A stretch of 64,000 nt of DNA from Sporopachydermia quercuum (taxonomy: Eukaryota). Location: NCBI GenBank assembly GCA_001599295.1, contig BCGN01000001.1, positions 1,674,001 to 1,738,000 on the forward strand, given 5' to 3'. The position numbers and the translations under genes are program-made. Numbering within the stretch: the first letter of the stretch is position 1; the number at the start of each line of letters is the position of its first letter. The notes under the pieces are model-generated. The model searched no databases and was not told the origin of the DNA. It saw only the letters and a program-made list of their open reading frames with translations. Below are positions 11,408-64,000 of this stretch, piece by piece.

Positions 11408-12539
11408 AAGGGAAAGATAGAGTGTGATGAAGTAAAGTAGGGTTATTTAATGAATAGATAGAGTAAACGGAATAAATGGGCCGTAAGTATAATACGAGAT
11501 GAGTAGTAGTTGGCAACATTTTATACAGTAATATTCAATAGAATTAATAATAAAATCACTACTATAGAAAAGATCATTCTCTTATATGACTATGTATCTT
11601 TGGCCTTGTTACTCAGTCACCAATTAGTTTAATATATCGAAGAGCATCACATGAATAAATGTATAAACAGCACTCAAACTTGTCTTCATACTATCTAATT
11701 CTAAAGATCTGACCAAATTCCAATTAGTCAGAAAGGTTCTCTTTCTTCAAACGTATAAACGAGCCTTGCTTTGATCAGAACCCCCAACTCTCGGATTATT
11801 TGATGAAAGTGAGTCAGTAAACCAGTAATCTTTGTTATTTTTACCGCACATCGATAACAATGTTCGTGCTGATTCATCTCTCTCATTAAATAGCCGGCCG
11901 TCTTATAGACTCCAATACCATCATTCAATGTTACAATCGTTTTTTCTAATAAAAGNAAGACAGAATATATATAAATCAAGACATAAGTCAAAATATCTTG
12001 TATAATAACCACCAAGAGTCACAGAAAAGGTCAGCAGTCTCTCGAACCGGTAGTTCATAATACCCTATGGATAGCGATTGAATCTATTAAATCTTCGGGA
12101 TAGATGCAAAATTTTGAGGATGATCTTCCAGCAACAATCACTAGTAAACAGAAACTGTATGAAATTCTCAACTCCAGTCGATGCAAATACACCACTAGTA
12201 GCAATCACTTATCACTTACCAATACTGCTTCCAGGTGCCAGGAATTATATTTGTCACCACCACTTATGGATGCACGCCATTCATTGATTTTCGCTACTTG
12301 CACTTTAAATCGTTCCAACCCTGAAAACAAATAAGAGTTTCTTGGAGTGAATACTGGAAAACGTGCCAACGAAAACAGAAATCAAGTCAAATTGTCCTGC
12401 TAACCCGTCATTTTCATTCAACTTTTCATTGTTTCAAAATCGAGTGCAACCATATATTCTAGTAAAAAGAAATACCAGAGATACCTTGTTCTCCTTTATT
12501 CTATGGTTCTTACGTCAAACAGACCTGTCAGAAAATTTT

Positions 12540-12740
12540 CTAAAATCTTCTCCAGAAGTTTCTGAAATCCCATCCAGCACTTTGGCCTTCTTCCGTAACA
12601 TAAACATCACGCTTTCTTTGATTAAACCTATCCATTTCTATTATTTGATCATGGATATAATGGAACCCACCTACTGCATAAAAGACAAACAGTCCAATAA
12701 ATAATTTGTGCTGGAATTTCAACAAAGGTTGTTTGGCCAT
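12540..12740 (-). CDS. Small 66-aa single-pass membrane protein, possibly COX14-like
   Basis: ATG at 12740 (ataATGG context): MAKQPLLKFQHKLFIGLFVFYAVGGFHYIHDQIIEMDRFNQRKRD...WRRF; one hydrophobic segment followed by a charged tail; resemblance to Cox14 is by eye only. Confidence 0.45.
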   Translation of the reverse strand: MAKQPLLKFQHKLFIGLFVFYAVGGFHYIHDQIIEMDRFNQRKRDVYVTEEGQSAGWDFRNFWRRF

Positions 12741-13385
12741 TATCAAATATAAGTAAGATAAAGGATCGGCAGATGATTGGGGAAAAAGTAAATAGAGCCA
12801 GAAGTCGAGTAACCAGAAGTAAGTAGCTATNTGGGATCTGAATATTATCGTATACAAAAAAGAAAGGTTCTACAATCTGATTTGTCACTAATATAGGTGA
12901 ATGTTTGTTATTTTTATCTGACCTTAGTGAAAGTTGTAAATCTACANTNCAGCTTGGTTATCTTCTTAAAATTCTACTGGTGTGTGAAGAATAAGTTATT
13001 AGGTTAGGCAAAGAATGCCAATCAGATTACCGTTAATGGGACATGACTTAACCCCATTATTCGCACGGGTAATAAGACATAAATGAGTATTAATAGCGAT
13101 TGATCAGTGAAACATGATTACCGATATATCAAAAATACTTCTATGAAACTAGACCATAGAGGAATAAATAGATTTGCTTGAATTGGGAATCGAGAAATTG
13201 CAGACTAAAGTTATATTTTGATTGTCNTTTCTAGTTTGAGGTTTTACTGAACGTGGAGTATACTATGATCCTGACTGAGCATCGACACCTAACTGGTGAA
13301 CAAACTATTTTATAAAACCACCAGAAAATACCCTTTAATAGCCATAAATCTTACTAATATAGTATATGGCCTTGATTCAAGTTCA

Positions 13386-15433
13386 TTAACCAAGTGATTC
13401 TAATTTCTTGTCCAAACCTTGTTTAGTATATTTAATATACTATAAATTCAAGTTAGTAAAACAATATTCAACAATTATTCAATTCTATTATCAAACTACC
13501 TCATAACGAAAAAAAAGAAAATCTTTTACTGAATTANACTTACCTTCTCAGTATGTTTCGAGAAGTCACTCTTGGAGTTCTTATCGTAAAATCTATGATA
13601 CAACGGAGAGATAAACTTTATCTCTTTGGCNAAATATGTCTTTAATGCAGGATCAGCAATATTCAACTGTTGAAACTTAGAAACCTGTTCATCAAACTCA
13701 GAATTGAAACTCTTAAATTTCTCTTTAATTGCTTCCCTATCCTTTGATGACATAGTGGTAGATTGTGTCATTGTTACATCCATTAAATGTGAAGCTAAGC
13801 CTTTCCACGTTTCCAAGAACAGATTTAACGCCCGTTTCTTCAATCTTTCAATTCTTGCTGTTCCAACAGTCCCTAAGGCCTTGCACAAATCCGGAGACCT
13901 TGATATAATTTGTTCGACCAAAGTAAGATTGGTGATCAAGAAAAATCCAATTTTTGTGCTTCGATTTGCTCCTTTTAAGGAATTGCTCACTAATTGCTTA
14001 GCCTTCAGTTCTAAACCTACCATAAGAGCATCTAAGCAATCACATAAATATGAAGAAAACAGTTCGTTGTTGTCACTAGAAGGAACATAACCGGGTGTAA
14101 TAGAACTAAAAGTGGATAACCAAGTAGGCTTTGGACTTGGAATCCATGATCCTGGGGTTATCCCATCCATTGATTTAGTAGCAGAATCACAGTATTCAGC
14201 AAACTTCCGCACCTTGGACATAACTTCCACCGTTATTTCTGAAACGCCATTATCAGAAGGTATTGCTGTCATAGAACCAACACGTTGATCGACGTACCGA
14301 AGGAATTCCTTGAGCAATGTTTGACTTAAATCTTTACAAGTTTTCTCATACTGTTTCAAAACTGAAACACCAACTGCATCTCCTAGATCTACGACTTTAT
14401 CATTAACTGAACTGCTTATAAACTGATCAACACCTGTAGTTGATTTGTACATTTCAAATACTAGCAAGCCTTCTGTAGTAATTCGGGATTCAACGAAGGC
14501 AATCAATTTGGCAATCGTATTCAAATAACCACTAACGATACTCTCAGCTAGTGGCTTAAAGAATTTTAGTGGTTGGCCTAAATCTGATACTAGTTGAAAT
14601 TCATTTGATAAGAAGCCTATTATACTTTCGCTATAAATACTTAGCTCTTGTATATAAACTTCTGTAGGTACTTTTTGTATTGCTGGGTTGTTCATTGATG
14701 TTGGTGATACATGTTTCAAACAATTGTCGATCAACTTTGTTCTTTCAGCAGTATAGATTGTCAATACCGATGTATCATCAGCATCAATTTTCGAGACAAT
14801 CTGAGCTGCAAGCTTGATTTTCTCTATCAGTTCATCATTCGGATATGGGAACGGCTGTCTTTCATCAATAACTGTTTTCGGGTTAAATGAATCCTTTGAG
14901 GCTTCTTTGACCAAACCTTGGAAATACATCACAATCGAGTTCTCACCTTGTTTTATTAGATTGTTCGTGTCGATATAAATTCGTGAGAAAGATCTGTCCA
15001 GTTGATTAGTTTTCATATGAGCTCTAATGCTTGCACATGAATTAACAGCCCTTAANTATTTACTAAGTCCTACCGCGTTTATCTTATCAACTATAGAAGT
15101 AGATATCGTCATATCAGGGTTATCTACTAATTGTTTGAAAGTAATCACCTCTTCGCTCTGTCGAAGTGTATATGCCGAGCTTTCAATACTTGACAGTAAA
15201 TTTAAACACTCTGTTACATTTGCATTGTAGATGTTCAATTGAGAAGAAGCAGCAGCCAAGGGTCTAATAATCTTCTCTGACTTCGAAGCCTTCGCTGATA
15301 GTCCTCGCAGAGATTTAGACAGATCTGAGGATAACGAGGAACATTTTGTTAGGTTATCTTCTAATATTTTAATGTCTGCCTCATCAGCATCAACATCAAT
15401 GTCGACTTCTCCTTGATACAAGCCTAACACCAT
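13386..15433 (-). CDS. EXO70: Exocyst subunit Exo70; exons 15433-13544 and 13439-13386
   Basis: C-terminal Exo70 signature (MSSKDREAIKEKFKSFNSEFDE...YHRFYDK); intron 13543-13440 (GTAAGT...TACTAAC...TAG) restores HTEK|YIKYTKQGLDKKLESLG*. Confidence 0.93.
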
Positions 15434-15755
15434 TATCAGGTATGGCTTGACTTGTTTGATATATACGTGTAAAAATAAATATGCGTTCGTGCGTCCTTAC
15501 TTGATTACTCCAATTGAGGTGTAACAATTAAGACTGATCAGTAATGATTTCTNTTCAATCAGACGNATTCTCTTGTTGACTCGACAGATAAGCAAAAGAG
15601 TGTAGAATGTAATGCCTTCTTCTTTATGTGGAATATATGACATAGGGAAGAGCGAAAGATCAGTTGCTGCTTTGATTATGTCATCACATTGAGTTATGTT
15701 TTAGAGATTATGTTATATTTTAAAACAATTGGTGAAAATGGAAAAGCGGAAACCA

Positions 15756-15791
15756 TAAAGGAGAATTGGAATCTAAAGGAGAATTGGAATC
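15756..15791. repeat. Tandem duplication of 18 bp TAAAGGAGAATTGGAATC
   Basis: Two exact adjacent copies in the EXO70-TRL1 divergent intergenic region. Confidence 0.85.
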
Positions 15792-16370
15792 TTATGATGG
15801 AAAGAATTAGGTATGAGTCATTTGACAGACGAGAATGATACGGCTTTTTATGCAATACTATCTTTTATAATAAAGGAGCTGATATTAGTTGATATCAGAA
15901 TGCATTGAGCTTCTTAGTTGAACAATGGAATTCACAGTAATACTCGAAAAAGAAAACCACTCAAGCATATTTCGGAAAACATGATAGACTTGAAACATTA
16001 TAAGTTCCGAAATTTTCTCACTTTAGAAACCTGAAAAAAACAAACTATGAAATAAAGTCNCATATAAATGCTAGACAGTTCCCTTGATCACTGATTCTAT
16101 TGATCTTGATGCTCAATTATTTCCCTATTGTAATATTAAAGCTCTCCGCAATCCTTAATAGAAGGATTATGCATCAGTTGTTTTGATTTATAAAGCCCAA
16201 ACTGAAAGGATAGCGAGAACACACTGTAGACCAGCAATCACCATATCAGATTGCTTTTCAAACACATAGCATTTCATATCAATAACCTGTATTACCCAGA
16301 AACAATTCAGGTGTCAAACAAAAAAATTCTAAAAGCTTGGAAGAGCCTCTTGTATATAAATTAAGGAGAA

Positions 16371-18902
16371 ATGAGTCAGCCAATAAAACTCTCATTCCAA
16401 GCTTTGAAACCGAGAGCAAACACTTCAGTAAATGAATTATTGAGTCTGCTTGATGCAGCTAAACAATTACCAAACAAGAAGGGGAAAGCCCACGAAACAC
16501 TGCTAAAACCATGGGGAATGGACAGGATCATTTCATCGTGGAAATTCAATGAGTGGGATTACAGCTCAAACAAAATAGCATTGCCAACGCAAGCTAGAGG
16601 ATTATTTACATACAGAGATGAGAATTCTGAGGGCCATATTCTTGTTCGGGGGTATGACAAGTTTTTCAATGTTGATGAAGTCCAGAAAACCAAATGGGAA
16701 TGGCTAGAAAGCAATACAAAAGGACCTTATTACTTGTCACTGAAAGAAAACGGTTGCATTATCTTCGTTTCTGTCTTTCCTGATACTAAGGAATTGGTTG
16801 TATGTTCTAAACATTCAACAGGACCAGGTAGTGATGAGAGAGAATACAATAAGATCCATTCTTTTGTTGGAATGAAACATTTAGAAAGACACTTGAAGGC
16901 AGCTGGAATTGAAAAAGAAAAGCTCGCTGAGGATTTACTACAATTGAACGCTACAGCTGTATTTGAATTATGCGATGATAAATTTGAAGAGCATGTNCTT
17001 GCTTATGATAGAGAGCATTCAGGCTTATACTTACATGGACTCAACTGCAANACTGTAGAGTTTATTACTTACCCTTGTGAAAATGTATCAGAATTTGCTG
17101 AGAAATTTGGGTTCTTCAAAACAGATTATATTGTTATNGACAACTTCAAGAATTTAAAGCAATTCTTGGAAACCTGTGCAGAAACAGGGAGTTATGAAGG
17201 GAAAAGTATTGAAGGGTTCGTGATAAGGTGTAAAGAAGTGTTAAATTCAACAGAAATAGTAGATTNCTTTTGGAAATACAAGTTTGAAGAGCCATATTTA
17301 TTATATCGACAATGGAGAGAAATGACTAAAAAATGGTTGAGTGGTAAATCGGTTGAAGAAATCAAAGTCAATAAACACGTCAAAGTCTCAAAATTATANC
17401 TTAGCTTTGCCATTAAATTCCTGACAGCGAACCCAGAGTTTGCCGACAAATATCGAAATGGTCATGGCATTATTGGTTTACGAGAAGAGTTTTTAAAATC
17501 CATAGGAAAATCTGGTGTGCAAATCATTCAGGAAGAAAGCTTAGAGTTGGTGGCTGATCCGGAAATTAATGAACTATCCAGTAAGTTTTCTGATTTATAC
17601 CTTGATAAACCATATTTTGTATTTATACCTGTGGCGACTATTGGTTGTGGTAAGACTACAGTTTCCTTGACTTTACACAATTTATTCCCCCAATGGGGAC
17701 ATGTGCAAAATGATGATTTAACTGGTAAAGGACGAGAGCAGAGATTTGTTTCTCAATCATTGGATGCATTTAGTAAATCGAATAACTTTGTTATTGCTGA
17801 TAGGAATAATTCCATGAGAATAGAAAGAGAGAGGCTGCTGAAGCTGTTCAAAGAGAAGGCTGATCCGTATCTTAGACCTAGACTACGATTTATATGTTTG
17901 GATTTTGTTGGTGACGATATTTCTACTGAGGAGCTGAAGAAAATTACTTATGCTAATGTAACCAGTCGAGGGGATAATCATAAGACAGTCAGAGTTTCTT
18001 TAGGGGAAAGAAAGGTGATGCAGATAATGGATGATTTCATTCGAAGATACCAAGCCGTCGATGCTGATGTTGAGCCAGATAAAGGCTTCGATCTTGTGAT
18101 CAAGTTAGATATCACAGACCCAAAACCAAGCAGAGCAAATGTTTCAATAATATTAAATGCCATGGAAACGCATTATCCTTCTAGTTTGCCCTATATCCCA
18201 ATTAGCGACCAAATTGATGAAGCATTTACGAAAGCGCTTGATTATAAGCCTGAAAACATAGTTGTAGTTAGGAAGCCTATGAAAATTGAAAACACTATTA
18301 CAACAAATAAACATATAGCAAAGCGAGCTGATTACTTTGCTATTAAGGTCAATCATGAAAGCGTGATGAAAGCAGTGAAAGATAGCTCCGCTGTCTTATC
18401 AGATTCTACGTTCCGAAGTCTTGAAACAGAAGGAAAGATTCAACCTCGGTTCCACATTACATTGGTTCACAAATCAAGTTTGCAANGAAATAATGGAGAT
18501 GGCCTGGAAGCTTGGCAAGCATTACAAGAAATCATTTCAATCACATTGAGTGACACGCCCTATAAAAAGGGTGATTTGAATATCATCAATGGAGTTGTTG
18601 CTGACATCAAGCTTTGTAGTATTTTCATTTCTGAGGGTAAATTAATATGCGTCGCTTGTGATATTCTTGAATTCAAAACCATAGGCGTCATAGGGTCACG
18701 TATCAAACCAAAACTGTTAAGTTCAGTCAAATGCAACAACCGATTCCCTCATATAACACTAGGAACAATGAATGGGNTCAAACCATTTGAATCCAACCTC
18801 GCATTGAATACATATTCCAATGGTGATCATGGTGGTATCACCAAGATTGATTTTCCTCATGACATTATTTTAGTTGATCAACCTTTAGCATTTTTTGCAT
18901 AG
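16371..18902 (+). CDS. TRL1: Fungal trifunctional tRNA ligase (ligase, kinase, cyclic phosphodiesterase)
   Basis: 843 aa; [17 protein letters not shown] ligase motif I, CSKHS, EGFVIR; kinase P-loop ATIGCGKTT and ADRNN; two CPD HxT motifs (FHITL, PHITL). Confidence 0.96.
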
Positions 18903-27207: not shown

Positions 27208-27706
27208 GTGTTTCAACTAATAGCAGCTATATATGAGACTTGTTAAAGCTTATGAAACGATTGAATGAATAAATATATAACCATTACCATCGTATAATCT
27301 ATTATTCGACTCTTATTTCTCGTTTTCTTATATTACCTACATACTAGAAGATGTAGAAATGATATGTAATAAGTATGCAATATATTATTCCAATATAGTT
27401 AGGAGGATCTATACTACCTATTTAGGTATGACGCCTAACACTAAATACTTGCTATCAATAAACTTCACAATCTCTAAAAGGTTATATCACTATGAAATAG
27501 TTCACAACAATTGACATCTTTATTGATGCGAGACCTCAAATAATGACGATTATCAATTATTGCAATTAATCCTGCTTTTTATAGTTATCTGTTTTTTTGT
27601 AAAACTTCATTTGTTTTCCACTTAGCTAACGTTCTTCACTGTTGAGTCTTGCTATAGCGTATCACCACAAGAACCTAATGAAAATACTGCATCGCGTATA
27701 TTCCAA

Positions 27707-29858
27707 ATGTCGCGACGTTCCACACGATTAAGAGGAAAATCTCAAGTAAACTATAGTAAATTAGGAGAAGATGAATGGAGCGAATTTGATGATTTAGAGA
27801 CCGTTTTAGGTCTGGACAAGCGTGCATCGAATCGAGGAAACGAAGAAGATTCAGACGATGAAGTAATAATTGAGGATATACAATCAGATCCAGCGGATGA
27901 TGAGATAATAGAAGAGGAACCAATTGATACTGACAATGAAATTTTAGACAGCAGAGCTAGTAAAAGTCGATCGAAATCGATTGATGGTAAAGGTAAAAGG
28001 AAAAAGGGGAAATCGTCAACCATAACAAAAAAAGAGCTAATTGCAGGCTCAGGTAGCAGCAGCTTACCTTTGTTTGAGCTATTACTGAAAATGAAGTTCT
28101 GTTCATTCAAAACACGAAGATTGGATGGAAAGCTGGCTAAATTTTTTGGAACAAGCTCAAGAATACAAGAAGGTGAAGCTTTAGTCAATTATTGGATGGA
28201 AGACCCTTTTCTTCCCAATGAGACAAAATTTTTTGACTATACGGCAAATCTTATCAATCATTCACTATGGCCTGAATTCGAGAATAAGATTGTTGATAGT
28301 ATATATGAAGAGATAAAAGAAAGGTATGTTGAGGAATTATGTTTTTAATCTGGTGCATGTTTTGGTACTGGGATTATATTATACTAATATGTTAACAGTG
28401 AATATACTGCATTAATGTCACCCAACATATCAGCTAGGATGTTTATTAATCAAGAAGTCCAACCACGAATTTTACGTCTTCACGTCAAAGAATCAATAAA
28501 TGATCAAAGAATGATGATATTTAACGGCAATACTACTACGGAGCTTTCGTGGGTACCTGGAATAGAAGATAGATCTATCCAAATATTAGCGGTAGCTACA
28601 TCATCCAAAGATCAAATAGAAACAAATTTTAACAAGCAAGGCTTATCAGTATACTCAACAACATCAACAGGATACTCAGCTCTATGTTTATACAAGGTTA
28701 ATACTAGCAGTACTAATATGATTCTCTTCCAAAGTATTATCATAGAAGGTGGTCCTCTTTCTAGTCTGTCGTGGAACCCAATGAAATGTTCAACTACCGA
28801 TTTGTTGGGTATTCTGGGTGTTCTAACCCATTCAGGATCAATAAAAATAATAAAGCTGAAGAAAAATGGCTTTAAATACTCAAAGATAAAACAAAGCTTT
28901 GAATTATCTTTTCCTACTAGGAAAATAACTGCGTTCGCTTGGAAATCTGAAACACGGATTGTGATAGGTTTGGACTGCGGGAGTATTGCAGAATATGATT
29001 TTTTGAATTACAGCTTAGTTAATCCACTTTATACTTATCCGATTCATGTATCAGGAATTAGTCAAATTGTATCTTGCTTTCCAAGGTTGAATGATATTAT
29101 ACTTACAATAGGATTTGATTTTAAGTCAATACTAGTTGACTTATCGTCATTCCCTTTGAAACACTCTCTTTTGAAGAATAGATCCTTTACATATGCTGAA
29201 TTCTCACCGATAATTGAAGGAATAGTTGGTTCAACCAGATACAGTGGTTGTAGAATATTATCACCTAGATGGATGGATAGTAGTACAGTCCTTACTATGA
29301 CCCCAGGCACAGTGACAACAGTTTCACTGTCACCAATTCACCCATTTGTTGTTTCGGGAGGATCTGACGGTGGATTAATTATAACCAACATATTTACTTC
29401 TTTATTTGGAACTTCTCAAAAAGTCGATATGGTAAGTTTGATAGATATTTGGAAATAACTGATTTCTGAGGTAAGAATCATTAAATACCTTGACAGAATT
29501 ATTAACAGAACAACTCATATTTAGACAAACCAACAATTGATTCTATGGAGATTAGAATATAGTAGAAAAGAAGATGCCTATAAAATGTCGGACATTTTAA
29601 TCCATCAGGTACGTTAATCACAATGTGCTTTAGTCACTACACCACTCTAAGACCATATATCTATCGCTAATCCAGTATTCTTTTCCTAACTTGATAACTA
29701 ATAATTTACAGGTGATCAATGAATATGGTGCTCCTACACCTACTTATCCCCCACAAATCAGTATTGTTTCTTCCAGCTGGAATCCTAATATTAGCTCTGG
29801 TTCATGGCTGGCAACAGCTACAAAGGAGGGCTTGATCTGTGTTGAATCCATTAGTTGA
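27707..29858 (+). CDS. TFC6: TFIIIC tau91 subunit (WD40), Tfc6-like; exons 27707-28323, 28399-29431, 29525-29608, 29712-29858
   Basis: Acidic/basic N-terminus followed by WD40 repeats (SLSPIHPFVVSGGSDG; LWRLEYS; SWNPN...SWLATATKEGLICVE); three introns (GTATGT, GTAAGT, GTACGT donors) join the ORF fragments in frame; lies near ESC2 and ESF1. Confidence 0.75.
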
Positions 29859-29874
29859 TTGGTTTCATAATTAA

Positions 29875-31325
29875 TTAGTACCTGGGGAACTTCTGGTCTA
29901 TTTTTATACTCCATTGATTTAATCCTCCAATGATATCTCTAGAGACCAAATCCCTCTTCTTCAGCTCTTCCACAGCGTTTTGAGAATCATTGCCATATCG
30001 ACAAACCAGAAGAATCTCCTTTTCAGAATTGCTTTTAAGCTTTTCTACCAGTTTCTGGTAATCAGCCGTATTTCTTTCAATATCAGTTATTGGAATATCT
30101 ATTTTCGTTTGTTAGTAATAAAGTACAGAGAGAAGAGATCTCACTACTTTCCATCCAACTAGTTTTTACTACGTGGAACAAACTTGCGATACTACTTACT
30201 TATTGACTCTGATAAAGAGCAAATGTCAAACTGCTCCTTTGGTCTACAATCCAGCAGAACATAATCATTTGGATTCTGATTCCTCATAACACTTAATTGT
30301 TCTACAGTGATTCGTTCCTCTGAAGATAGAAGGACCTGGTCAGGTTTACCACAGAACACTGAATAATCAAACTCGCCTTTCTGCACTATTGATGCAAACT
30401 CACTGTTTTCAATTTCACAGTTTGATTTCTTACCTCTCATTCTCATTTTACGGAAAAGCTTCCCGTCTAATGCTGAGAATAAAAGTATGAATGGCTCAAA
30501 ATTATTCTCATAATGCCCAATAAGTAGCTTGATAGTTTCCAAAGACATCAGTACACCCATTATACCAATAACAGGACCAAGGATGCCAGAATCTCTGCAA
30601 GACGACACAGAATTAGCAGGGGGTGGGTTAGGATAGAAACATCTATAACAAGGTCCTTCTCCTGGTGGATAATTTAGAATAGTTAACTGACCATCAAGTT
30701 TAACACCGGAAGCCGAAACCAAAGGTTTACCTGCTAACACACAGTTGTCAGATATCAAGTACCGTGTCATTGGGGTATCTGTACAATCAAGCACTATATC
30801 ATATTGTGATATTATTGATAATGCATTAGATACGTCTAACATTATGTCATGAGTAACACAGTCAACATTAGGATTAAGCTTTTTCAGGAAAGCAATAGCA
30901 GAATGAGATTTCAATTCACCAACTGTTTCTGTACTATGTAGTATTTGACGATGTAAGTTAGATACATCTACTGTATCACTATCGACGATACCTAATCTTC
31001 CAATACCTGATCCTGCTAAGTATGCTAAGGCTGGACAGCCAAGTCCACCTGTGCCTACTACTAACACTTTTGAAGTTTTCAGTCGAAGTTGACCTATGAA
31101 CAAAGAACCAATGCAAGTTAGTACTTGGTGATTCAAAAATTAATATCTAACAATAGATGAAACAGCGAAACAGCGCATACCTTTCAGTCCTACTTGAGGG
31201 ATGATTATCTGTCTTCCATATCGAATATATTCGTCAAGATCAAGCCTAGTATTTGATTTTAAGATCTCATTTTCTGTCTGAAGTCTTGCTATCTCCTTCC
31301 GTAGTTTCTCAACTTCGTCATCCAT
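29875..31325 (-). CDS. UBA4: Urm1-activating adenylyltransferase/sulfurtransferase; exons 31325-31181, 31093-30200, 30098-29875
   Basis: RYGRQ, GTGGLG, SNLHRQ, DCTD, PCYRC MoeB/E1 domain; spliced C-terminal rhodanese domain with CRYGNDS and DIIGGL...FPRY*. Confidence 0.94.
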
Positions 31326-33974: not shown

Positions 33975-34999
33975 ATGAAATCCGTCATTTCCATATTGTT
34001 ATTGCTCTTGGAGCTGTCAATTGCAGCACCAGCTTTGCTGTACTCCCAAAGATTGTAAGTATACAATTGAGATGTGCGATATAGGTTGCTGCGAATGATG
34101 ATGATGAATTTTCTACTAAAGATTAATATTGTTATTTGTTCCTCCAGGAAAAATACTAACATCAGGCAATCAGAATTGAAGGTGTACTAGATAGCGTACC
34201 TAATAAAGATGACACTGTAGGAGCAGATTCATTTAAACAATTTGCTCAAAATTTCATTACTCCTTGCACATCCGACGCTTATTTTATAGTGAATCTACCA
34301 GGATTACGAATGGAGGATTTGAGTGAACGACAAAGTTTTTCTACCATTTGGACATTTATGAATAGAGCTGTAACAGTTGCTACTTTTCCTTCAGTTGAGC
34401 TAGATAAGAATGGGTTCAAAGAACTGATAGAGTACGTTGAAGATACATGTCGAGCGAAACGTCTCACTTATATAAGTGGTGAAGCAGAAATAGAAAATTA
34501 TATTGATACTCAGAAAAGGGTCATATATATGGAACTCGAAGCATTAGAAGACGATATGTCCGAGGAGGAGAGAAGAAAAGTTCTACAACGTAATGACTGG
34601 ATAATGCTTAGAGTGTTTCAAAAAACACCGACTCCTTATCATACAGTGATCTTTACATCAACGAATCCTAGTATAGAGGATGATATTCAAAGAGGGATAA
34701 AACTAGGTGGTTCTGTTTTTCCTGAAGTTGAATATGCTGCTAANCAGAAGGCAGAATATGAAATAGAGAAGCAACAGAATATAGAAAACGAAAAAGAACG
34801 GAGAAGAAAACAGTCATTAGTTCAGCATTTTCCAGAAGGTGTCGAGAAGGTAAATGAAGAAAACGAGGATTATAGCAACTTGTTCCTATTTAGCGAAGAG
34901 AAGTATGAAATAATCAAAGAGAAGCTGATGTTATACGGAACGAATATTGTTTTGGCGTATTTGGCTTTTAAATTACTTAAATCTTATTACTGGGGATGA
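33975..34999 (+). CDS. BIG1: ER membrane protein Big1 (beta-1,6-glucan synthesis); exons 33975-34054 and 34174-34999
   Basis: Signal peptide MKSVISILLLLLELSIAAPALLYSQRL; intron 34055-34173 (GTAAGT...TACTAAC...CAG); CTSDAYFIVNLPGLRMEDL and PTPYHTVIFTS motifs; C-terminal hydrophobic segment. Confidence 0.78.
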
Positions 35000-40356: not shown

Positions 40357-43300
40357 CTATTTCTTAAACACCTTTTTCATAACACCATGATCTTTTAGCA
40401 ATCCTTCAAAACCAGAATTACTTTTCGTCTTTTTTCTGGAATTTTGTTTAAGGATTTTCTCTGCCTTCTTCATGGTTAAAACATTTCCATTTCTTTTAAT
40501 GTTACCATTAGCGGATTCTTCTTCCAGCTCAGAGTCAGAATCGGAGTCAGAATCAGAGTCAGAGTCAGAACCAGAACCAGAATCAGAGCCAGAACCAGAG
40601 TCGGAATCAGAATCAGTTTCTGACTCCGAGTCTTCATCAGTAATAACATTCTCCCGGCTTGAAGTTTTCCTCAGGTCGAGCTTTTTCACATTAACCAATT
40701 CTTTTAGACCTTCTCGAACATCAAGCTCTCTATTAACCAACGATGATAAACTCTTCAATCCTTTCATAATTCCTGCTTTGTTTGTTGTGGGATTAGAACT
40801 ACTGGCTTTAGTGTTCTGCTCAGATTTAGCATCAAATATGGTCACATTTCTGGCCACATTTTTGGAGTTAAGATTATCTCCCAAACCACCAGCTGAGCCA
40901 CTGGCTGATTCGGGAGCTTCTTCTTTTGGGGTACTATTCCTTCTCAATCTGGGGACAAAACTTGGTGACAAAGCTTCTATGGCGCTCTGACTACCACTAC
41001 TCTTGCTGCTAGTATTCGTTCTAGTAGTCTGTATTGGTGGCGGTCTTACTAAATGGGGGCTTCGGAGATCAGGTGCCTCTGGGGTTGGTGTTTTCTCTCT
41101 GGATTTAAAAATTGTGGTAGGTTCTTGCATCGATATACTAACGGACGTTGCAAGCCTCGGGACCTCTGTATCGGAATCCGAGTCATCGTCATCGTCGTCA
41201 TCCTCTTCCGAATCTTCATCTGAATCATCATCCTCCGAGACGCCTTCCGAAGCTTGAGCTTGAGCTGATACTGAAGTGAAATTTGGTTTAGCACTGCTGG
41301 GTTGAGTAAATGTTTTACCATTTGTTGCATTTAAGGTTTCTATAGGCTTAGTTGGCGACACAACATCCGTTTTGGTAGGAAGGGGAGTCTCAACCACACT
41401 TTTGTCATTTGGGGCTTCAGATTTTGCTTCAGTTTCGCCAAGCTTAACAATGTCCTCAGACTTGGCTTTCGTTTCCACCTTAGCCTCCATTTGGGACTTA
41501 CTTCTCTTCGTTTCCTCTTTAGGCTTTTCTTCTAGTTTACCTTTGGCGACTGCGCCACTTGTTGTCCTCGTCGTTGGATTAGCCTCAAGGTTCTTGGAAG
41601 TTGTTCCAACCATAGTGCTCTCTGTGGCTGCTGCTGGTGCGTCTGTTGTTGTCGGCTTAGGATTTTTAGCCCTAACACGAATAGCATTATTAACTGGTGG
41701 TTTAGATTTTTCGTTTGCCTCATTGTTAGCCTTGGATTCAACTGCCTTTTCAGTAGTAGCTTCGACTTTTTTGGTGTCTTCTGATATACCTTCATTATCA
41801 TCATCATCATCATCGTCATCATCACTAATTGTGGTTTTACTTAGAACCCTTTCATTATCAGTTGCCCTGGTAGCCTTTTTTGATGGAGGTCTGGCAGCAG
41901 CAGCAGTTTTGTCCTCAGACAAAGTAACTGTTTTATCCACAGTGGAAATAGAGGTCCCAGATATCTCTTTAGGAACAGTTGACTTCACAGTGTTTCTTGC
42001 GCTATTGTTCTGTGGAGCTCTTGGCAGTGGCTTTGTATCAGCACCGTCACTTAGCTCAGACACATCTTTATCTTCTATGTCAGCTTTAGCAGTTCTCTTG
42101 TCTTTCTCAACTTTTTCACTAATTTCTAGCTTCTGCTTTTGCTTCAGCCATTCCTCTTTTGTCAACATTTCTTTATTCAATGTTGCAATATTGCAATTGT
42201 TCACTTTGGGCGTAGATGCTGCTATCATTGCAAGCTCAGAAACACCATTTTCNCTTGTTGGAATATCAATTGTTTCCAAAGTAGTGTTTCCAACAGAGGT
42301 NGAATCACCTGGTGATATAGGAGTTTCCTTTGGAGTGGCACTACTATTCGTAGTAAGACTAGTACCAGCTGTAGCATCTATGGCAGGCGTAAGTGGAAGT
42401 GTAGCTTTAGTATTAGCTTTAGTATTATTATCAGTAGTTTTAGCATCACTTGGGGCAATTTTATGAACTGTTAAGTTATCATATGGATGTTCCATTTGTT
42501 CCTTCACTTTATCCAATGCCTTCTGAGCAGCTTTTCTAGTAGAGAATCTTCTGTTAGAAGTTTCTCCATGTACTTCACCTTCAGTAATTGCCCTTTCTTC
42601 AGTTTTTGCTTCAGTTTTTGCTCCACTTTTAACAGCAGTTGCCCTAGATCTAACAGGCTTCTTCACAGCTGCTTCTTGTTCTTTTGAATCAACCTTCTTA
42701 CGAATACTCTTGCTAGTTGAGGGAACAGATTCTTCACATTTGATGCCTAATCTTAAACATCTTGCACACGACGGAAGCGCTCTATCACACTTTTTTCTTA
42801 CTTGCCTACAACCCATACAGGCTAAGAGTCGGCAAGATGATGACTTGTTAGAAGTATCTACTTCTCTGTCATGTAATTCTGAATCATCTGTCTTTAGTAC
42901 ATCATCAGATGTTTTTTTAATAGTTTCGATGGATTCTGTCGGAGGCCTTGATAAGGATTTCAATTTCAATTTCCCTGAACCTTCTGTTTTATTTGCATTA
43001 TTCGATACCGCTTCAGCTTTATCTAATTTCGTTGCTGATGCTCTTTTCTTAGTAGCTTTAGCATCATCAGTATTTTTAACAGCTTCAGCATTTCCTAGTT
43101 TCTCATTTATCGTAGCCTTTTTTTTATATTGTCTTGGCTTTGATTGAATCCTTACTTTTTTACTACTAGAAGATGATTTGTTCTCGATCTCATCAGGTTC
43201 CAAAATCATTTCTTTGCTCATATTACTTGGACTCAATAAATCTTCATGAGTGCTAACGTCGATATTTCTAATGGGAGAGGGAGCCAAAAGCAGAGGTGAC

Positions 43301-44422
43301 TTCTGGGGATCTACATTCATAGCTGAGTCATCACTAGGAGGAGGAGCTAAAGATAAATTGCTTTCCTCCTCATCTTCTTCATCTTCATCGCTTTCTTCCG
43401 ATGCGTGCTCCTCTTCCTGGTCCTTCTGCCTATCTATGTACTCTTTTCTTGAACCCCTACCAGAATTCGTGCCATCTTCCTGATTAATCATATGAGAATT
43501 ATCATTAGCATCATTAGCATGCATTAAAGTCTGTACAGAAGTTCTTACAGCTCTTGGTGATTCACTAAGTCTAGTATAGTTAAACTCTATGCTATCATTA
43601 TCGTTTTCAAAATCTGTATCAAAGCCCAAAAAGCTATCTTTCTTCCGACGTTTTCCTCTACTGACTGCATGCATAATTGCATTAGTATTTCCNCTGGTAT
43701 CTGCATCCGATCGAGGAACTTCCGAACTTGGCTTCCGTTTGCTCACCATAAGTCGAGCCGTTGCTTTATATCGAGGAACATCTAATAGCTCATCGTTCTT
43801 AGCAAGCTGTGAATACTCGTCGTGATCTATAGGAGGATTCAATAATACTCTTACTATATTACAATCATCGAAAACATCTTCAGCAATATAATCAGGGTCT
43901 AAGTCGCAACCATTAACGTCTTGTAATCTGTTTATATCCAGAGGTCTATAATTGGTCAGTATTTAATCAATAAATCAATAAAAAAGAAAAAGCTCTCATG
44001 TAGAAAACATAAGAGTAAATTAAGAGTAGCGTTTGTCTTTAACTCAACAAAATATTTACTTACCTTTCATCAGGATATAGCTTAACAAATCTGGTAGCGA
44101 TCTCTTCGCAAATTTGTAATAAATTATACCCTTTATGCGTCAAATGCAAAAATTTCTTTAATTCCACGTTCTGATAATTGGAAATTGGTGATCCCGTTAC
44201 CAGTGGACTAGATGCTGCGTAGCCGATTGATGTCATACGAGCCTGGGTTATTGATGGAGGTGTATTGTACATTCCCGTAAGTGAGTGCCGCCCCCTGCCG
44301 GAAGTATTTCGCATTCTGACATTGCTTTGAGGGTATATCTGACTGTTACTATCTTCTCCATATGTCGCTTGGGTATTTATATGTTTTGTCCAAGGGATCA
44401 GAACTACTTGAAGTTTCAACAT
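40357..44422 (-). CDS. Net1/Tof2/Dnt1-like nucleolar Cdc14-binding protein with an internal Zn(II)2Cys6 domain; exons 44422-44064 and 43945-40357 (1315 aa)
   Basis: MLKLQVVLIP...KKFLHLT...EIATRFVKLYPDER|PLDINRLQDVNGCDLDPDYIAEDVF is the Net1-family N-terminal domain, joined across intron 44063-43946 (GTAAGT...TACTGAC...TAG); long disordered region; LKSLSSLV, a DS-repeat and a basic C-terminus. Confidence 0.85.
40528..40630 (-). repeat. Coding hexamer repeat (Asp-Ser / Gly-Ser tract)
   Basis: Repeated tcagag/tcagaa/ccagaa units encode DSESETDSDSDSGSGSDSGSGSDSDSDSDSDSDSE. Confidence 0.85.
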
Positions 44423-45406
44423 TGTAATCGAGCTTATTTTCTGTGCATACAAGATTATAGTTACTTTATCGTTACCAAAAACATCCAAAAGGTATTATGG
44501 GTATAGATAATGAAAATTAAGCGTTTTAGTAAGTATTTGTCAAATCTCGAAACAGACAATAATTGTGGATGGAATTTTTGACCTTATTTATTTGATTTGA
44601 GGCCTGTCAAGTGCGTTTCCTGTGTAGACTAGGTAACAACAAATCAGCCCAAAGTGAACAGGAAATACTTCTAGTGTTATCGAATTCCAAGGCAGACAAA
44701 TGCCAATTGATTGTCGGGTTAATGTAACAATATTGTGCAAGTCACTATTAACATTAAGCCAATATATAGAATATAACGTAACGATTTATTGGAGATGGTA
44801 TGAAAAAATAGTAGTATTTCGGTTATTGCATGGATTTTTTACAAAGATGGTTCTATTTTTTCTTGGTAGAAATGTAGTTGGTGTGGAAATAAGGTTTTGG
44901 TTGAAAGGCAATTTACGCGTTTGTATCCGGAGGTTTCCCATGTCAATTCCGGAGGTCTGTTATTAAGGAACGAGAAGTAATGCCAATCACGTGCTTTTCT
45001 ATGAGAATCACCTTAAGTTAATTTCGGCTTAGATATCAGAATCGATGAAGTTTACAACTTTGGAATTGAATCGCGTGAAGACACATTGAAAATCGTTTAT
45101 GTACGGATTGGCTTTGAAATCATCTTAATGGGACAGACACTATCTGAGTATGTGAATGTTNAATGACAGTTGTTGTACAGGTTGACGATAGATAGGAAAC
45201 GCAGTAAGNGCTGTATTAATTTTTCTTTCAAAATTGCTCAATAATAAGAAACCAGAGTTTAGTGTGTATTTTGTATAGTTTAAAAGATACCTAATTAAAA
45301 AAATGTGCTGCGTAAACTGTATGGCAGTGTGAACAAGAATTCATCATCCCATTGTCAAGCGTTCTCAATAGACAGAGATTGAGCTGATGTAGTAAAGTTG
45401 TCTAAA

Positions 45407-45696: not shown

Positions 45697-47206
45697 TTAA
45701 CCTAGTTTTATCCTTTTTGCATTCATTTCATTATTGACACTATCTAGCACATTGCGTGAAACTTGATCTGTGCCAAAGATATCATCCAAATCATCGGAGT
45801 TATCANAATCATCTTCAGAATCATCTTCATTGTATTCAGGTTCAGGTGCCCAATGTAATATCTTTCCATCCAACCCCCCAGTGAAAAATTCGACTGTTTC
45901 ATAATCTTTGAAATCAATAGTGCTACATCGTGCACTAGAAACACCTCTAGCGAGTCTATTGATCATTTTCCCCTCACGAAAATCATAAAATATTACATCG
46001 CCAGTATCACTAGGAAATACCAGAATCTCTCTACTTCCATATCGATAGGGTTCTTCTACCAATGAAAAATCTAGATGTTGTAAATGTTTGTTTCTTATCA
46101 AAGGGCCAAAATTTGTCAGTTTATTGATACCACCCTCTGGTATTAAATCCCAAACTCTCATCTTATCATCATTACCACAGGATATAAGGGTCCCACCATC
46201 TCTACACCAAGCAAGACCATTTACAGGACCCATATGAGATCTTATTCTGAAATTATCATACCTATTGTCTTTCTTTGCATCAGTTGTCAGACTCTTCCTG
46301 TTAAGATAGAGTTGGGCTTTAGGAGGGTTTGAATCATCGACTCTGTTCATGTCTAACAAGCAAACACATGCATTGCTTCTTCTAATATCCCAAAGCCTAA
46401 TAGTTGAATCTGATCCGCCTGATGCCAAAATATTTGGATCTTGAGGTGACCAAGCGACAGCTAGAACTTTTCCATTGTAATGGCCTGCTAGTGAATGAGT
46501 AGCTGAGCTGGTTCTGATGTCGAGTAAACGTACGATTGGATGGTCGGAACCAGTAGCTATTAAGGTATGCTGACCGGTTTTTGATAAGTCAAAATTGTAC
46601 ACTTTATTTCCCAAGTCAAACGATAGAACACTTTCCATTTCATTACTATCCCATACTTTGACAGTGTTATCAAATGAGGACGACACAAACATTCCATTAT
46701 CATTGGGCCACCATGCGCAGCATGAAACAGCAAAATCATGCCCTTCATGTCTATAATCTGTGTTAGTAAGTTAGCCAATAATTAAATCGATTTCAAATTG
46801 AAGAATTCGCAGAGTGGAACGGAACATAATACTTACCTCGGTATTGTCTCTAAACAGACATATTTCTTATCATCGTAATCTGATTCTCTTTCATCAAACT
46901 CTTCCAAATCCCATATTTTTAAACTGGAATCAGCTCCTCCAGATATCATACTATTAGAGAATGTTAGCTTAACTTCTCCTCAGTAAGAATAATATTTGGT
47001 CTCAGCATTCGCCATATTCATACATACTATCTATTCTCTGCTCTTTCAATAGTCAAATAATTAGTTGCACCCAAGTGCGCTGGTATTGGGAAGCTCTCAT
47101 CTTCAACGATATGCAATCTTTGGATTCTATTTTCTTGAAATTGACGTCTTAACTTCCAGGGATCCTTGGTTAACCCCAGTGACCTATCCAGCAACAAACC
47201 ATTCAT
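45697..47206 (-). CDS. RAD28: WD40 protein, Rad28/CSA (ERCC8) homologue; exons 47206-47028, 46950-46837, 46750-45697
   Basis: Spliced N-terminus MNGLLLDRSLG...ENRYMISGGADSSLKIWDL...HDFAVSCCAWWPNDNGMFVSSSFD; VRLLDIRTSSATHSLAGH, RLWDIRRS, TNFGPLIRN are CSA-family features. Confidence 0.85.
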
Positions 47207-48419
47207 TAACTGATCAAATCCCTATTGGATTTTCTAAGTGAATGGTAATGTCAGACATACAATTGCCTTGTTTTGGAAGTTCTCTTTCTCTCCAAAGCAT
47301 TCACCAATTTTATCAATCTTTGAATCGCCCAAAAAAACACTTGCACAACTTAGAAAACATGTTAATTATTAGACTGATTTATTTTCTTGTTCTCTTTTTA
47401 TTTTTCATTTATACTGTTTATCTCTTTGTTCAGACCATGGATGGTAGGAAGAGATGAGAGAGATAGTGTACAGTATTGCCTAAATAAGAAGATTTTACCA
47501 ATCCCAACACTTTCAAATCCGAATAAAGACCTAACATCATTTCAACTGAAATTAATCATTATCTCTATTCAATGATCATGTTAATTTAAACAAATTCTTT
47601 CTTCGTTATTTACGTCTTTTCGTATACAATAGTAGCAATACAAGCAGCAGCGTCTTTCATTATAAATCTTTTCTCACGTTCGCAAACCTCTCAGAACTTT
47701 CTTGTGAGCATTTCGAAATGTGGGGCTTTGCTATCAATCTGCATGTGACATTCATATGAATGATGTTTGAGTAACAAAAGTTGAACAAATCCATTTAAGT
47801 GTCGCCCATCTCGCTTCTGTGGTATAGTAACTAGGGTCTGTCCGTTTCCACTCTTTTGATGGCAGTTTTCTTTTTTTCTGTTTTTTGTTGTGGTGATGAT
47901 ATCTTGTTGATATGAGTTGATCAAAGCTTGNTGATATGTGTACCACCATGTTTGATTCGTTTTACGAAGATAGTAGTTACATAGGAAATATAGANAAGAT
48001 CAGCAGTCGAACTAGAAATTTGCTAGAAGAACTTGAAATAGATTGAAAGCTAGATAGATATATATTACGGAACTATAAAAATCCATACAGTAGAAAGGAG
48101 TTGTTTTCAAGAGTGGATGATTGTTTGAAAAAGATCAACTTGGAGGAACCAGTAACTATTAAGATAAGGTGTCATCACAATAAGAGATTTGAATTTTTTA
48201 TTGCTGTTACAGCAATGATTTGAATTCAAATTTGGGGGATTGTCAGCTATATGGATTTGGGATAGATACTTACTTTCATTTGGGTAGTTATTGTTTCTTC
48301 AAGATCGAAAGTGAATTGAGTGAAAAGAGCATATTTCAAGGCTTACAAAAGACAGATATAAACGGAATAGAAGAAATAAAATATATTAACGGGTCTGTAA
48401 ATGGTATGTTCTTTAGAGG

Positions 48420-50190
48420 ATGCCATTAATGTTACGTAACAGCCACGGCAATCATGGCTCCTCTCCTTCATCAGATGGTTCTAATAAATCTGGTTCGTTT
48501 TTGAGACGTCAAATGAAGTTACGTCAATTTGGATCTAATTTGATGCGGAAATCGCTTGCATTGAAAATTTTATCACCTCATATTGAACAGTCTGACGAAA
48601 GGATTCAGAGACTGAAATCAAAATGGGGATCGTACAAAGGAAGATATTCCAAACGTCGTTGGCCAGAGAATCATTTCCATTGTGATGACATCTATTGCGA
48701 TGATCATTTTGATTCTCCGATTTCATCAGCGAGTGCAACAATGAGAGACGAGACAATGAGAGATGCTACAATCGATGAAGTCTATGAAAATATCCCTTCA
48801 AGGTTGGAGCTTGATGACCTGCAGGACTCTAGTTTGAGGTCTACAAGACCCCCCTATTCAAGTGATCCTTATGTTGGCTATTTTAATCGTTCGCTCGATA
48901 CAAGCCCCTTTGTTTGTTCGCTGGTGCAAAGAGAGAATTCGATCTGCTCTTCTGTCGACTTTTGTTCTAACTTCACTCCAAAGAAGAACAATGACAGTTC
49001 ACAGTTCCCAGCTCCTACTGAGATTACTATTAGAGATTTGACAATGCTTGATATTAGTGATGATTTGCATACGTTAGACCCTAATGATACTATCTATGAA
49101 AAGTTTCACTGCACAAATCTTTCGGATGTTTTTGATTCCTATATGCAGAAAACACCAATTAGCAATTACAAAGTTAACTCAGGGGATCCAAATCCAAAGA
49201 ATATCTACGCTCCAGGTAGATTTTCATCACACAATGATTCAATCAACAGAAAACTTAGTAATTCGTATTCGAACACATTTGAAGTGAGTAATGAGGACAC
49301 ATGTGATTATGATAATGATAATCAATTTCAAGATGAAGGCACATCACAACGATTATCTAAGAACCAAACTTATGCAGCAGGGACTTTCAAATCCTTGCTT
49401 CCAAGCAATCATAATAGTTCTTTCTTCTACTCACCTATAACTCCTGATTACTTGTCTTCAAATAATAACATTAATCAACATGAGAGACTGCAAATGAACA
49501 GTATATATTACCAATATGCGAATCACTTCTACCGTTCAGAACTGACAATATTTTTTAGCTGAAAAATTTAATAGACATATTGATTCGGATCCTTTTTATG
49601 AAGCCTTCTCAGATATTGATGAATACCAAGTAAAATCTCGCCTAGCTAATGTTCTTCCACAGATTTATAATCGTAACAACGTGAACTTGCAAACACCAGT
49701 GAAAACCTCAAAATATGAAAGAGAATCTATTCTTAGTCCTCTATTATTTGAGCCAGATATGGAAACCAAAAGTAGTCATCATACCAACAATAATAACAAT
49801 AGAAGTAGAATTCAGTTCAGTCCGGAGCCTGAAGTGTTCTGCTATAATACTGACACAATCAGGCGTCATAGTCGTACATCTTCTATCAGGCATTTGTGGT
49901 CATTAAGAGGGAAGTATCTGAAAGGAAAAAATGAGATATCACATTCAAATGGGTTCGATGTATCCGAATCGGTTTTGAAAAATAAAATCAATGAGAACTT
50001 CCGCCAGGAGCTTTTACAAGCTGAAAAGTGTGACGGCGTTAATATTGAAGAGTTCCTACATATATTCGATACTAGAGAACAAAATCGTGTTAAATCAGAA
50101 CCATTTCTAAGTTCAGCACGCTTAAAACAGTTGGAAAATTATCAGAGATATACAGATTACCCCATAAGAACTCTAGAATATGTCAACTGA
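48420..50190 (+). CDS. Gip1-like PP1 (Glc7) regulatory subunit; exons 48420-49500 and 49559-50190 (570 aa)
   Basis: RVxF-type motif RIQF, SILK-type SVLK, and C-terminal AEKCDGVNIEEFL...ARLKQLENY resembling the Gip1 C-terminus as I recall it; a 58-nt intron (GTATAT...ACTGAC...TTTTTTAG) joins the two ORFs in exact phase. Confidence 0.65.
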
Positions 50191-62868: not shown

Positions 62869-64000
62869 TTTGTATAAAAAGTAGTTTGTTATTATTAGTA
62901 GTACAATTTATAAGGGTAACAACAATCAATAAGTTACTACAGTTTGGCTCATTAATTGTTCAGTATTCCTTTCAATCAGTGTTGTTATATCAAACGTGAA
63001 GAAGAAGAAGAAGAAGAACCTCAAGGCGGGAATTGTTTGAAGGTAACAAAAGAAGGAGAAGCCAAAGTCAATTGAATTGGCATTGGGGTATTTGCTGTTT
63101 GCATGTACGTAACCTATTTGAGTTTTCTCAATATGAAACACAACTACAAATGTGAATCTACAGTGATGAATTGGGAAGTTACGTATACAAACACAGTGAG
63201 ATTCACCTAATATGTAAGTGAATGTGAGAAAAAGTACATTNTTGGTGTCATTATGCGTCATTAATACAGGAAGAGTGCATATATGTATGGTGATGGCGAA
63301 GGTGGAAAGGATAAGAATTCAGGGATTATTGAATAAGAAATTATTTGAACCATCATATCAAATTATTTTATTACTTAATTCATATTTCATGAATTATTTT
63401 CCTTTGAAATAGTTTCATTATATCAATACTCAATTGCAACNNNNNGTTGCAATTGTAAGAGATGATCCTAGTTTGATTGTGACTATTGAGTGGATGGTGA
63501 CGTGGTTGAGTTCCTTTTGGTTGGTGAAATAATGGAATGAGAGCTCATGTTCGTGATCATTTTACTGCGCACAGATAACGAGCACTCAAATCAACACTGT
63601 GAAGGGAATAATTGGTATGGGTTGCATTAAAAAAAGAAAACCCCTGTGAATTGCAAAAACGATAACTAGTAAGAATATGAGGATACAGGTTCTGATTGTC
63701 TGAACTTTCAATTTGAGCTGTAGCTATTTCTTTATCAGAATAGAAACGACGAAGGTAAATTATCAATCTTGTGAAAAATACGAATTGACCAAAAACACGA
63801 AAGTGTTCTAGTTGTTCTTTGTTTCATCCTGCAGGGAAAATTGTAACTTTATTACTACATAGTGAAGCTCATATGATACTTATGACAGTTCAGTATTCGG
63901 GCATCTATTTTGTTCTGTCATCACTGTTCTCGAATAGATAAAGAAATGTGGTTATCAAGATCTCACTCGACGTTTTGAACAATGTTTTACAATTTATATT

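Follow-up and report, generated by a model that had tools for sequence, protein, structure and literature searches.

The 64,000-nucleotide stretch of Sporopachydermia quercuum DNA analysed in this study (contig BCGN01000001.1, positions 1,674,001 to 1,738,000; hereafter the window) carries on its minus strand, at 44422..40357, a gene of the Net1/Tof2/Dnt1 family whose predicted product contains an internal Zn2Cys6 cluster of the Gal4 type. The gene consists of two exons and an intron of 118 nt. Exon 1 (44064..44422, minus strand) comprises 119 codons and two bases of a split arginine codon; it encodes a Met-x-Lys-Leu-Gln-Val strand, a loop and the first half of the Net1-family domain PF10407 (Cytokin_check_N). 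The intron (43946..44063, minus strand) begins with GTAAGT, contains a branch-like TACTGAC site and ends with TAG. Exon 2 (40357..43945, minus strand) supplies the remaining base of the split codon, 1195 further codons and the stop codon at 40357-40359. The Zn2Cys6 cluster lies within this exon at 42718..42822 (minus strand), where positions 2-36 of the PF00172 profile (Zn_clus) are matched, and its six-cysteine core at 42736-42819 corresponds to residues 496-523 of the spliced protein.

According to the original prediction, the intron at 44063-43946 joins a Net1-family N-terminal domain to a long open reading frame. On the minus strand the exons fall into two stop-to-stop frames, 44494..44060 (144 codons) and 43962..40357 (1201 codons), and the start codon at 44422-44420 is the first ATG of the upstream frame, which ends directly past the GTAAGT at 44063. 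The downstream frame had been given as 1161 amino acids, a figure that has to be corrected to 1201 from stop to stop, exon 2 accounting for 1195 whole codons plus the split one. Joining 44064 to 43945 maintains the frame via the split arginine codon and results in a coding sequence of 3948 nt with one terminal stop and a protein of 1315 amino acids. PF10407 carries the annotation 'Cdc14 phosphatase binding protein N-terminus' and is divided precisely by the intron. Profile positions 2-32 are matched at 44066..44158 (minus strand; exon 1 residues 89-119; 33.4 bits) and positions 35-69 at 43837..43941 (minus strand; exon 2 residues 2-36; 42.3 bits), so the halves abut at the junction, both above the gathering score of 22.6. 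Moreover, the spliced N-terminus is colinear from residue 1 across the junction, and gapless there, with seven family proteins and with an open reading frame from metagenomic DNA (locus L001). The splice signals, the abutting domain halves and the colinearity with relatives bear out the predicted join.

A strict yeast-type intron pattern (GTA[ACT]GT ... TACT[AG]AC ... YAG) yielded four candidates on the plus strand and eight on the minus strand of the window, and only 44063..43946 lies inside the gene. A second intron that would excise the cluster was considered and rejected, as the gene contains no other strict candidate. The branch site of the Net1 intron reads TACTGAC, that of the other candidates compared TACTAAC. 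Five intron candidates with the strict GTAAGT ... TACTAAC ... YAG consensus are located at 46751-46836, 30099-30199 and 13440-13543 on the minus strand and at 34055-34165 and 30953-31082 on the plus strand. They sit at the 5' ends, or close to them, of the genes for the WD40, ThiF/Uba2-like and Exo70 proteins and of two further frames. S. quercuum seems to retain many short 5'-proximal introns. An intron within PF10407 distinguishes the S. quercuum gene from the named Net1-type proteins.

An assembly chimera, or a wrong gene model joining a Net1 gene to an unrelated zinc-cluster gene, would also produce such an architecture. The model was built from sequence and not from RNA, and the window contains 53 N positions, about one per 1.2 kb (for example 998, 5983, 42253, 42301 and 43693), three of which fall inside the Net1 gene. 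None of these three is in the cluster, however, and the single 1201-codon open frame 43962..40357 encodes the second half of PF10407 together with the cluster and with the C-terminal tail typical of the family (see below). The fusion of the Net1 domain with the cluster is therefore independent of splicing, and, as described above, the gene holds no further strict intron candidate. In addition, a 34,677-base contig of one sequencing run spans 42302-43692 without a single difference, which is weak support as it may derive from the same sample. Two other sequencing runs were compared with the stretch; one gave no match and the other only short, unlike pieces. Taken together, we consider an artefact very improbable. 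The single Ns look like masked ambiguity codes of a heterozygous diploid and not like gaps, and a five-base run at 63441-63445 may be a small gap.

To place the protein in its family we used a profile derived from the domain half in exon 2 and a single fragment match, which retrieved 40 proteins. The named ones originate from Eremothecium, Nakaseomyces, Kluyveromyces, Lachancea, Huiozyma and Ogataea, and several are called Net1 or Tof2. In BLAST comparisons exon 1 matched 38 of these 40 proteins and exon 2 all of them, the exon-2 matches being confined to residues 1-60 with one alignment extending to residue 114. The S. quercuum protein aligns from residue 1, with the Met-x-Lys-Leu-Gln-Val strand followed by a variable loop before PF10407. 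This start is present in 38 of the 40 family proteins, and the remaining two have other or truncated starts. A sequence search of the PDB with exon 1 returned two chance-level matches only (E 0.81 and 1.8).

The C-terminus carries family features as well. An acidic Ser/Asp tract of about 42 residues (approximately 1223-1264 of the spliced protein; 40513..40638, minus strand), delimited by composition with coordinates set by hand, corresponds in composition to the acidic portion of the C-terminal region in S. cerevisiae Net1; a weak low-complexity 'Serglycin' match of Pfam covers exon-2 residues 1107-1143. It is followed by a basic tail with a terminal Gly-Phe-x-x-Leu (40360..40485, motif at about 40390-40416, minus strand), derived from a tail alignment and likewise placed by hand. 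In 30 of 34 distinct family tails an acidic Ser/Asp tract is likewise followed by a short basic tail that has Gly-Phe-x-x-Leu near the last residue, and the four without the motif appear truncated. Both elements of the S. quercuum tail align with 16 family tails and with L001. This signature was noticed by direct inspection and alignment, and no Pfam model reported it in scans of the family proteins. It falls within the C-terminal region defined as stimulating RNA polymerase I (Pol I) in S. cerevisiae Net1. According to Hannig et al., Net1 needs this region to associate with the promoter; the region also stimulates Pol I, and in its acidic portion it resembles the tail of UBF (PMC6415870).

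Since the protein ends in the acidic tract and the Gly-Phe-x-x-Leu tail of the family and is colinear with its relatives across the junction, its sequence identifies it as the single, full-length Net1/Tof2 orthologue of a budding yeast whose content of guanine plus cytosine is about 36%. An end-to-end fusion of two genes was rejected, because the family's C-terminal tail sits downstream of the cluster; the cluster is therefore an internal insert and does not mark two genes run together. With S. cerevisiae Net1/Tof2, S. pombe Dnt1 and C. lusitaniae Net1 (CLUG_02406) the protein has the PF10407 domain in common, and with the Net1 family in general the N-terminal strand, a long disordered, cysteine-poor body and the C-terminal acidic and basic elements. 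Weak overall similarity is normal for this family. The Clavispora lusitaniae orthologue is reported to align over a small segment only and yet to occupy the ribosomal DNA (rDNA) spacer together with the Sir2 orthologue (PMC3814328). In S. quercuum, too, similarity to relatives is limited to a short N-terminal segment.

The Cx2Cx6Cx6Cx2Cx6C core described in the original prediction is intact at 42819..42736 and represents the sole six-cysteine match in the six frames of the 64-kb window; membership was judged with the pattern Cx2Cx6Cx5-12Cx2Cx6-8C. PF00172 scored 30.0 bits against a cut-off of 21 (E 5.8e-7), so that profile scans report both PF10407 halves and the zinc cluster above their cut-offs, in line with the domain composition that had been claimed. 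Among sequences of the PDB the cluster matched Ppr1 (6.2e-5) and Lac9 (6.2e-4), and Gal4 and Hap1 more weakly. It shares with Gal4/Ppr1/Lac9-type proteins of PF00172 the same six-cysteine spacing and the proline between Cys3 and Cys4. Basic residues also lie between Cys2 and Cys3 and agree in part with the putative DNA-contact residues Lys17, Lys18 and Lys20 of Gal4. Aligned with Gal4, the cluster keeps Arg15, Lys20 and the proline; arginine, lysine and lysine occupy the positions of Lys18, Leu19 and Lys20, and valine that of Lys17. The net charge is +7 for the cluster and +5 for the following 50 residues. Cysteines are rare in the rest of the protein: of 11 among 1315 residues, six belong to the cluster and another precedes it by five residues, and the other 40 family proteins have one to seven cysteines each, mostly two or three. 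The cluster contains no CTG codon, also none for its leucine, and its reading is therefore independent of a CUG reassignment. A scan of the window for transfer RNA genes found none and so gave no clue to CUG decoding.

The fold of the cluster was predicted with AlphaFold2 for 126 residues around it, using an alignment of 39 of the 49 Zn_clus proteins matched in the HMMER search described below; ten long ones, some with transcription-factor domains, were omitted. Block means of the predicted local distance difference test (pLDDT) were 92-95 for model residues 21-50 and about 55 elsewhere. The model has two short helices, at residues 23-27 and 40-45, each starting from a CxxC. Foldseek returned 28 matches in the PDB with a best E of 0.018; owing to the shortness of the domain, no match reached E<=0.001. 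The best 20 of these 28 matches are all Zn2Cys6 proteins, namely 18 DNA-binding domains of transcription factors and two entries of the kinetochore (CBF3) complex. Gal4, Pho7, Lac9, Ppr1, Hap1, Put3, Leu3 and AlcR are among the matches listed, and there the best-fitting rows superpose with root-mean-square deviations of 0.6-1.8 Å over 26-40 columns; the predicted fold can thus be superposed on Gal4, Ppr1, Lac9, Hap1, Put3 and Leu3. We conclude that the cluster is intact and its fold confidently predicted, and we are highly confident that the gene encodes a real Net1 orthologue with a folded cluster.

Having established both parts of the protein, we searched for the same combination elsewhere. 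For the 40 Net1-family proteins the precomputed domain matches do not include PF00172, the six-cysteine pattern is missing from all of them, and a rescan of 29 of them detected no Zn_clus at E<=0.1; this rescan omitted eleven near-identical entries, the named ones of which belong to Nakaseomyces glabratus. L001 (open reading frame 4599-7664) is a single-exon Net1 gene without a cluster. The Zn2Cys6 cluster is accordingly absent from every other Net1-family member examined (40 proteins and L001). To our knowledge, S. cerevisiae Net1 and Tof2 and S. pombe Dnt1 have no zinc cluster either; these three sequences were not among the matches. The first 435 residues of exon 2, which hold half of the domain and the cluster, were also compared by HMMER with 1.84 billion representative sequences. 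Fifty proteins were found, 49 with Zn_clus only and one, a 61-residue fragment, with PF10407 only, and none with both. The best cluster matches are generic: among ten that were looked up, the eight named ones belong to chytrids, Naegleria, Willaertia and Aspergillus, with 29-50% identity. Among the best Zn2Cys6 matches are many short proteins that have two clusters and lack a transcription-factor domain, and the named ones looked up are mostly from chytrid fungi.

Further searches were aimed at close relatives. A word-indexed search with the whole of exon 2 scored 7997 candidates, none at E<=0.001, and low-complexity words probably crowd the candidates here; with residues 1-60 of exon 2 it scored seven candidates, none at E<=0.01. 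A metagenome scan with the first 435 residues of exon 2 gave 124 pattern matches and no relative, a second scan with the alignment behind the family profile described above identified one locus, L001, and the ESM Atlas contained no usable match. Searches of the literature on Net1, Cdc14 and zinc or binuclear clusters, and on PF10407, found no such protein described, judged by titles and abstract openings. The survey comprises mostly Saccharomycetaceae and Ogataea-like yeasts, and half a domain is a weak probe. Within this range the architecture is neither common nor described. The observation made in the original prediction is confirmed.

In several respects the protein departs from a zinc-cluster transcription factor. 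In proteins of the Gal4 class the cluster lies near the N-terminus and is followed by a linker and a coiled-coil dimerisation element. The S. quercuum cluster starts at residue 496 of 1315, in the long disordered stretch that separates the Net1 domain at the N-terminus from the acidic tail at the C-terminus, and no such linker with a coiled coil is predicted after it. In agreement with the original prediction, a fungal transcription-factor middle region, Fungal_trans (PF04082) or Fungal_trans_2 (PF11951), was not detected at E<=1 in the Pfam scan. These features bear on the question whether the cluster acts at genes outside the nucleolus. The protein would then bind DNA at non-rDNA sites and act as a repressor or adaptor that brings a Sir2-type deacetylase or Cdc14 to particular RNA polymerase II (Pol II) promoters or to other loci. 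It is general knowledge that Zn2Cys6 domains are nearly always Pol II gene regulators, and among the matches listed the PDB matches of the cluster are all such regulators except for the kinetochore entries. The intact family hallmarks at both ends and the missing middle homology region argue against this role, as does the reported presence of family members at rDNA in S. cerevisiae and C. lusitaniae (PMC6415870, PMC3814328). A function at Pol II promoters or other loci therefore appears improbable to us.

How might a cluster serve a Net1 protein? Net1 is the nucleolar scaffold that anchors Sir2 and the phosphatase Cdc14, which it binds and inhibits, at the rDNA; in S. cerevisiae it is the core subunit of RENT and has Tof2 as its paralogue. 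According to Hannig et al., S. cerevisiae Net1 reaches rDNA indirectly, via Fob1 at the fork barrier and via its C-terminal region at the promoter, and the authors report no sign of a DNA-binding domain in this C-terminal region (PMC6415870). Fob1 provides the DNA contact in trans (PMC6415870); it is a separate protein of a different fold, and the inserted cluster could provide the contact in cis. That the long disordered body of Net1 has captured a Zn2Cys6 module is the firm part of our reading. We propose that the S. quercuum protein is a nucleolar scaffold like those of S. cerevisiae and C. lusitaniae. The cluster would give this scaffold a direct contact with DNA, probably monomeric, of low affinity and of the CGG type. 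Because the rDNA repeat is present in many copies and the scaffold is multivalent, such a weak contact could become effective and bias or stabilise the association with rDNA. Direct contact may in this way supplement or replace adaptor recruitment through Fob1, Pol I and the promoter complex. Both reports cited describe Net1 as reaching rDNA via other proteins (PMC6415870, PMC3814328). We know of no Net1-family member with a DNA-binding domain of its own.

Direct DNA tethering of a nucleolar scaffold is in our opinion the most plausible function of the cluster, and we assign this overall explanation a probability of about 45%. Its components differ in certainty: the cluster probably binds nucleic acid, and rDNA as the relevant target is a tentative assignment that we place somewhat below even odds. 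Several points weigh against tethering. The splice junction is supported by homology rather than by RNA, and the binding of Cdc14 and Sir2 is assumed from the homology of about 160 N-terminal residues only. In BLAST searches against the 40 family proteins without low-complexity filter, nothing significant was obtained for the middle and C-terminal parts (best E 0.85). The 30 bits of the cluster are near the bottom of the range of 28-78 found for the 49 Zn_clus proteins. A valine occupies the position of Gal4 Lys17, a residue that we take to lie within the base-contacting stretch and, together with Lys18, to contact the CGG triplet. Furthermore, the AlphaFold2 model predicts neither a helix nor a coiled coil in the 76 residues after the cluster, and without a dimerisation element a dimeric reading of paired CGG half-sites is not expected. 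Finally, no close relative was found in any library searched, where the S. quercuum protein itself was also not among the matches.

Since no close relatives were found, the cluster could also be a recent, neutral insert. It would then be a lineage-specific addition with little or no function, or a small zinc-stabilised knob contacting protein or RNA, and Net1 would reach rDNA via adaptors. The restriction of the cluster to S. quercuum among the family members examined fits such an insert, as do its modest Pfam score, the valine at the Lys17 position and the missing dimerisation element. Besides, the surrounding 1000-plus residues have no remaining similarity to relatives and evolve fast, and insertions are probably tolerated there. 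On the other hand, the cluster has kept all six cysteines, the proline and basic residues, its fold has the high predicted pLDDT values given above, and in a context this poor in cysteine a chance origin is implausible. The best matches are generic Zn2Cys6 domains of chytrids, heteroloboseans and Aspergillus with 40-50% identity and do not reveal a fresh copy of a nearby gene: no donor gene could be named, and none of the 22 other window open reading frames scanned contains Zn_clus. We regard a functionless insert or a small contact knob as less likely than direct tethering. For direct tethering, the missing recognisable dimerisation element and the lack of conservation evidence mean that the 'alternative RENT-targeting system' of the original prediction is a somewhat weakened hypothesis, and its interpretation is partly supported.

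The genes around the Net1 locus were identified in a Pfam scan of the window's open reading frames. Genes for an Aly-like arrestin, Exo70 and tRNA ligase lie together at 7853-18902, about 25 kb from the Net1 gene. Their S. cerevisiae counterparts TRL1, EXO70 and ALY2 are neighbours of NET1 on chromosome X. The genes in between encode Esf1, aminopeptidase I, a Cys/Met pyridoxal-phosphate enzyme, a ThiF protein, a Rad60-SLD protein and a phosphodiesterase, and their counterparts are located elsewhere in S. cerevisiae. Six open frames of 214-381 codons have no Pfam match at the thresholds used (1-1068, 27626-28348, 28388-29458, 34160-34999, 48417-49562 and 49546-50190, all on the plus strand). 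In the pairs 27626-28348/28388-29458 and 48417-49562/49546-50190, the two frames may be parts of a single gene that an intron or a frameshift interrupts.

Two known systems help to illustrate what a Net1 protein with its own cluster might do. The first is Cep3 of the kinetochore CBF3 complex, where the protein that uses a zinc cluster is not a gene-specific activator and has an anchoring or architectural role on the chromosome. The chains 6gys_B and 8ow1_CE of two kinetochore complex entries, both weak Foldseek matches of the cluster (E 1.5 and 2.6), are presumably Cep3. Cep3 keeps a transcription-factor-like body, dimerises and is unrelated to Net1. The second is mammalian UBF, which combines HMG boxes with an acidic tail and may be regarded as a functional analogue, in that a DNA-binding module and a Ser/Asp-rich acidic tail would be united in one nucleolar protein. 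The S. quercuum protein has a Zn2Cys6 cluster instead of the HMG box and no homology to UBF, and its role in Pol I transcription is putative. According to Hannig et al., the acidic tail of UBF resembles the C-terminal region of Net1 and partly substitutes for it (PMC6415870). By this analogy, Net1 might have turned into a self-targeting rDNA protein, with a sequence-reading Zn2Cys6 cluster, a Cdc14/Sir2-docking N-terminal domain and a Pol I-stimulating acidic tail. It would then have arrived at the logic of UBF by convergence, and recruitment of RENT by Fob1 or the promoter complex could be dispensable. We consider this far-reaching version unlikely.

If the insert is neutral or restricted to one species, the finding is just a curiosity of domain shuffling. 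Otherwise, a natural Net1 with a built-in DNA-binding module would be a ready-made experiment on tethering, domain capture and the targeting of arrays. It could indicate to what extent tethering of the scaffold to the repeat is enough for Cdc14 sequestration in the nucleolus, for rDNA silencing and for Pol I stimulation. It may also show how fast-evolving disordered scaffolds capture new domains, and whether a single Zn2Cys6 module on its own suffices to direct a multivalent protein to a tandem array. If direct tethering is true, the S. quercuum protein would join the kinetochore protein Cep3 as a second case in which a zinc cluster serves chromosome architecture instead of gene-specific activation.

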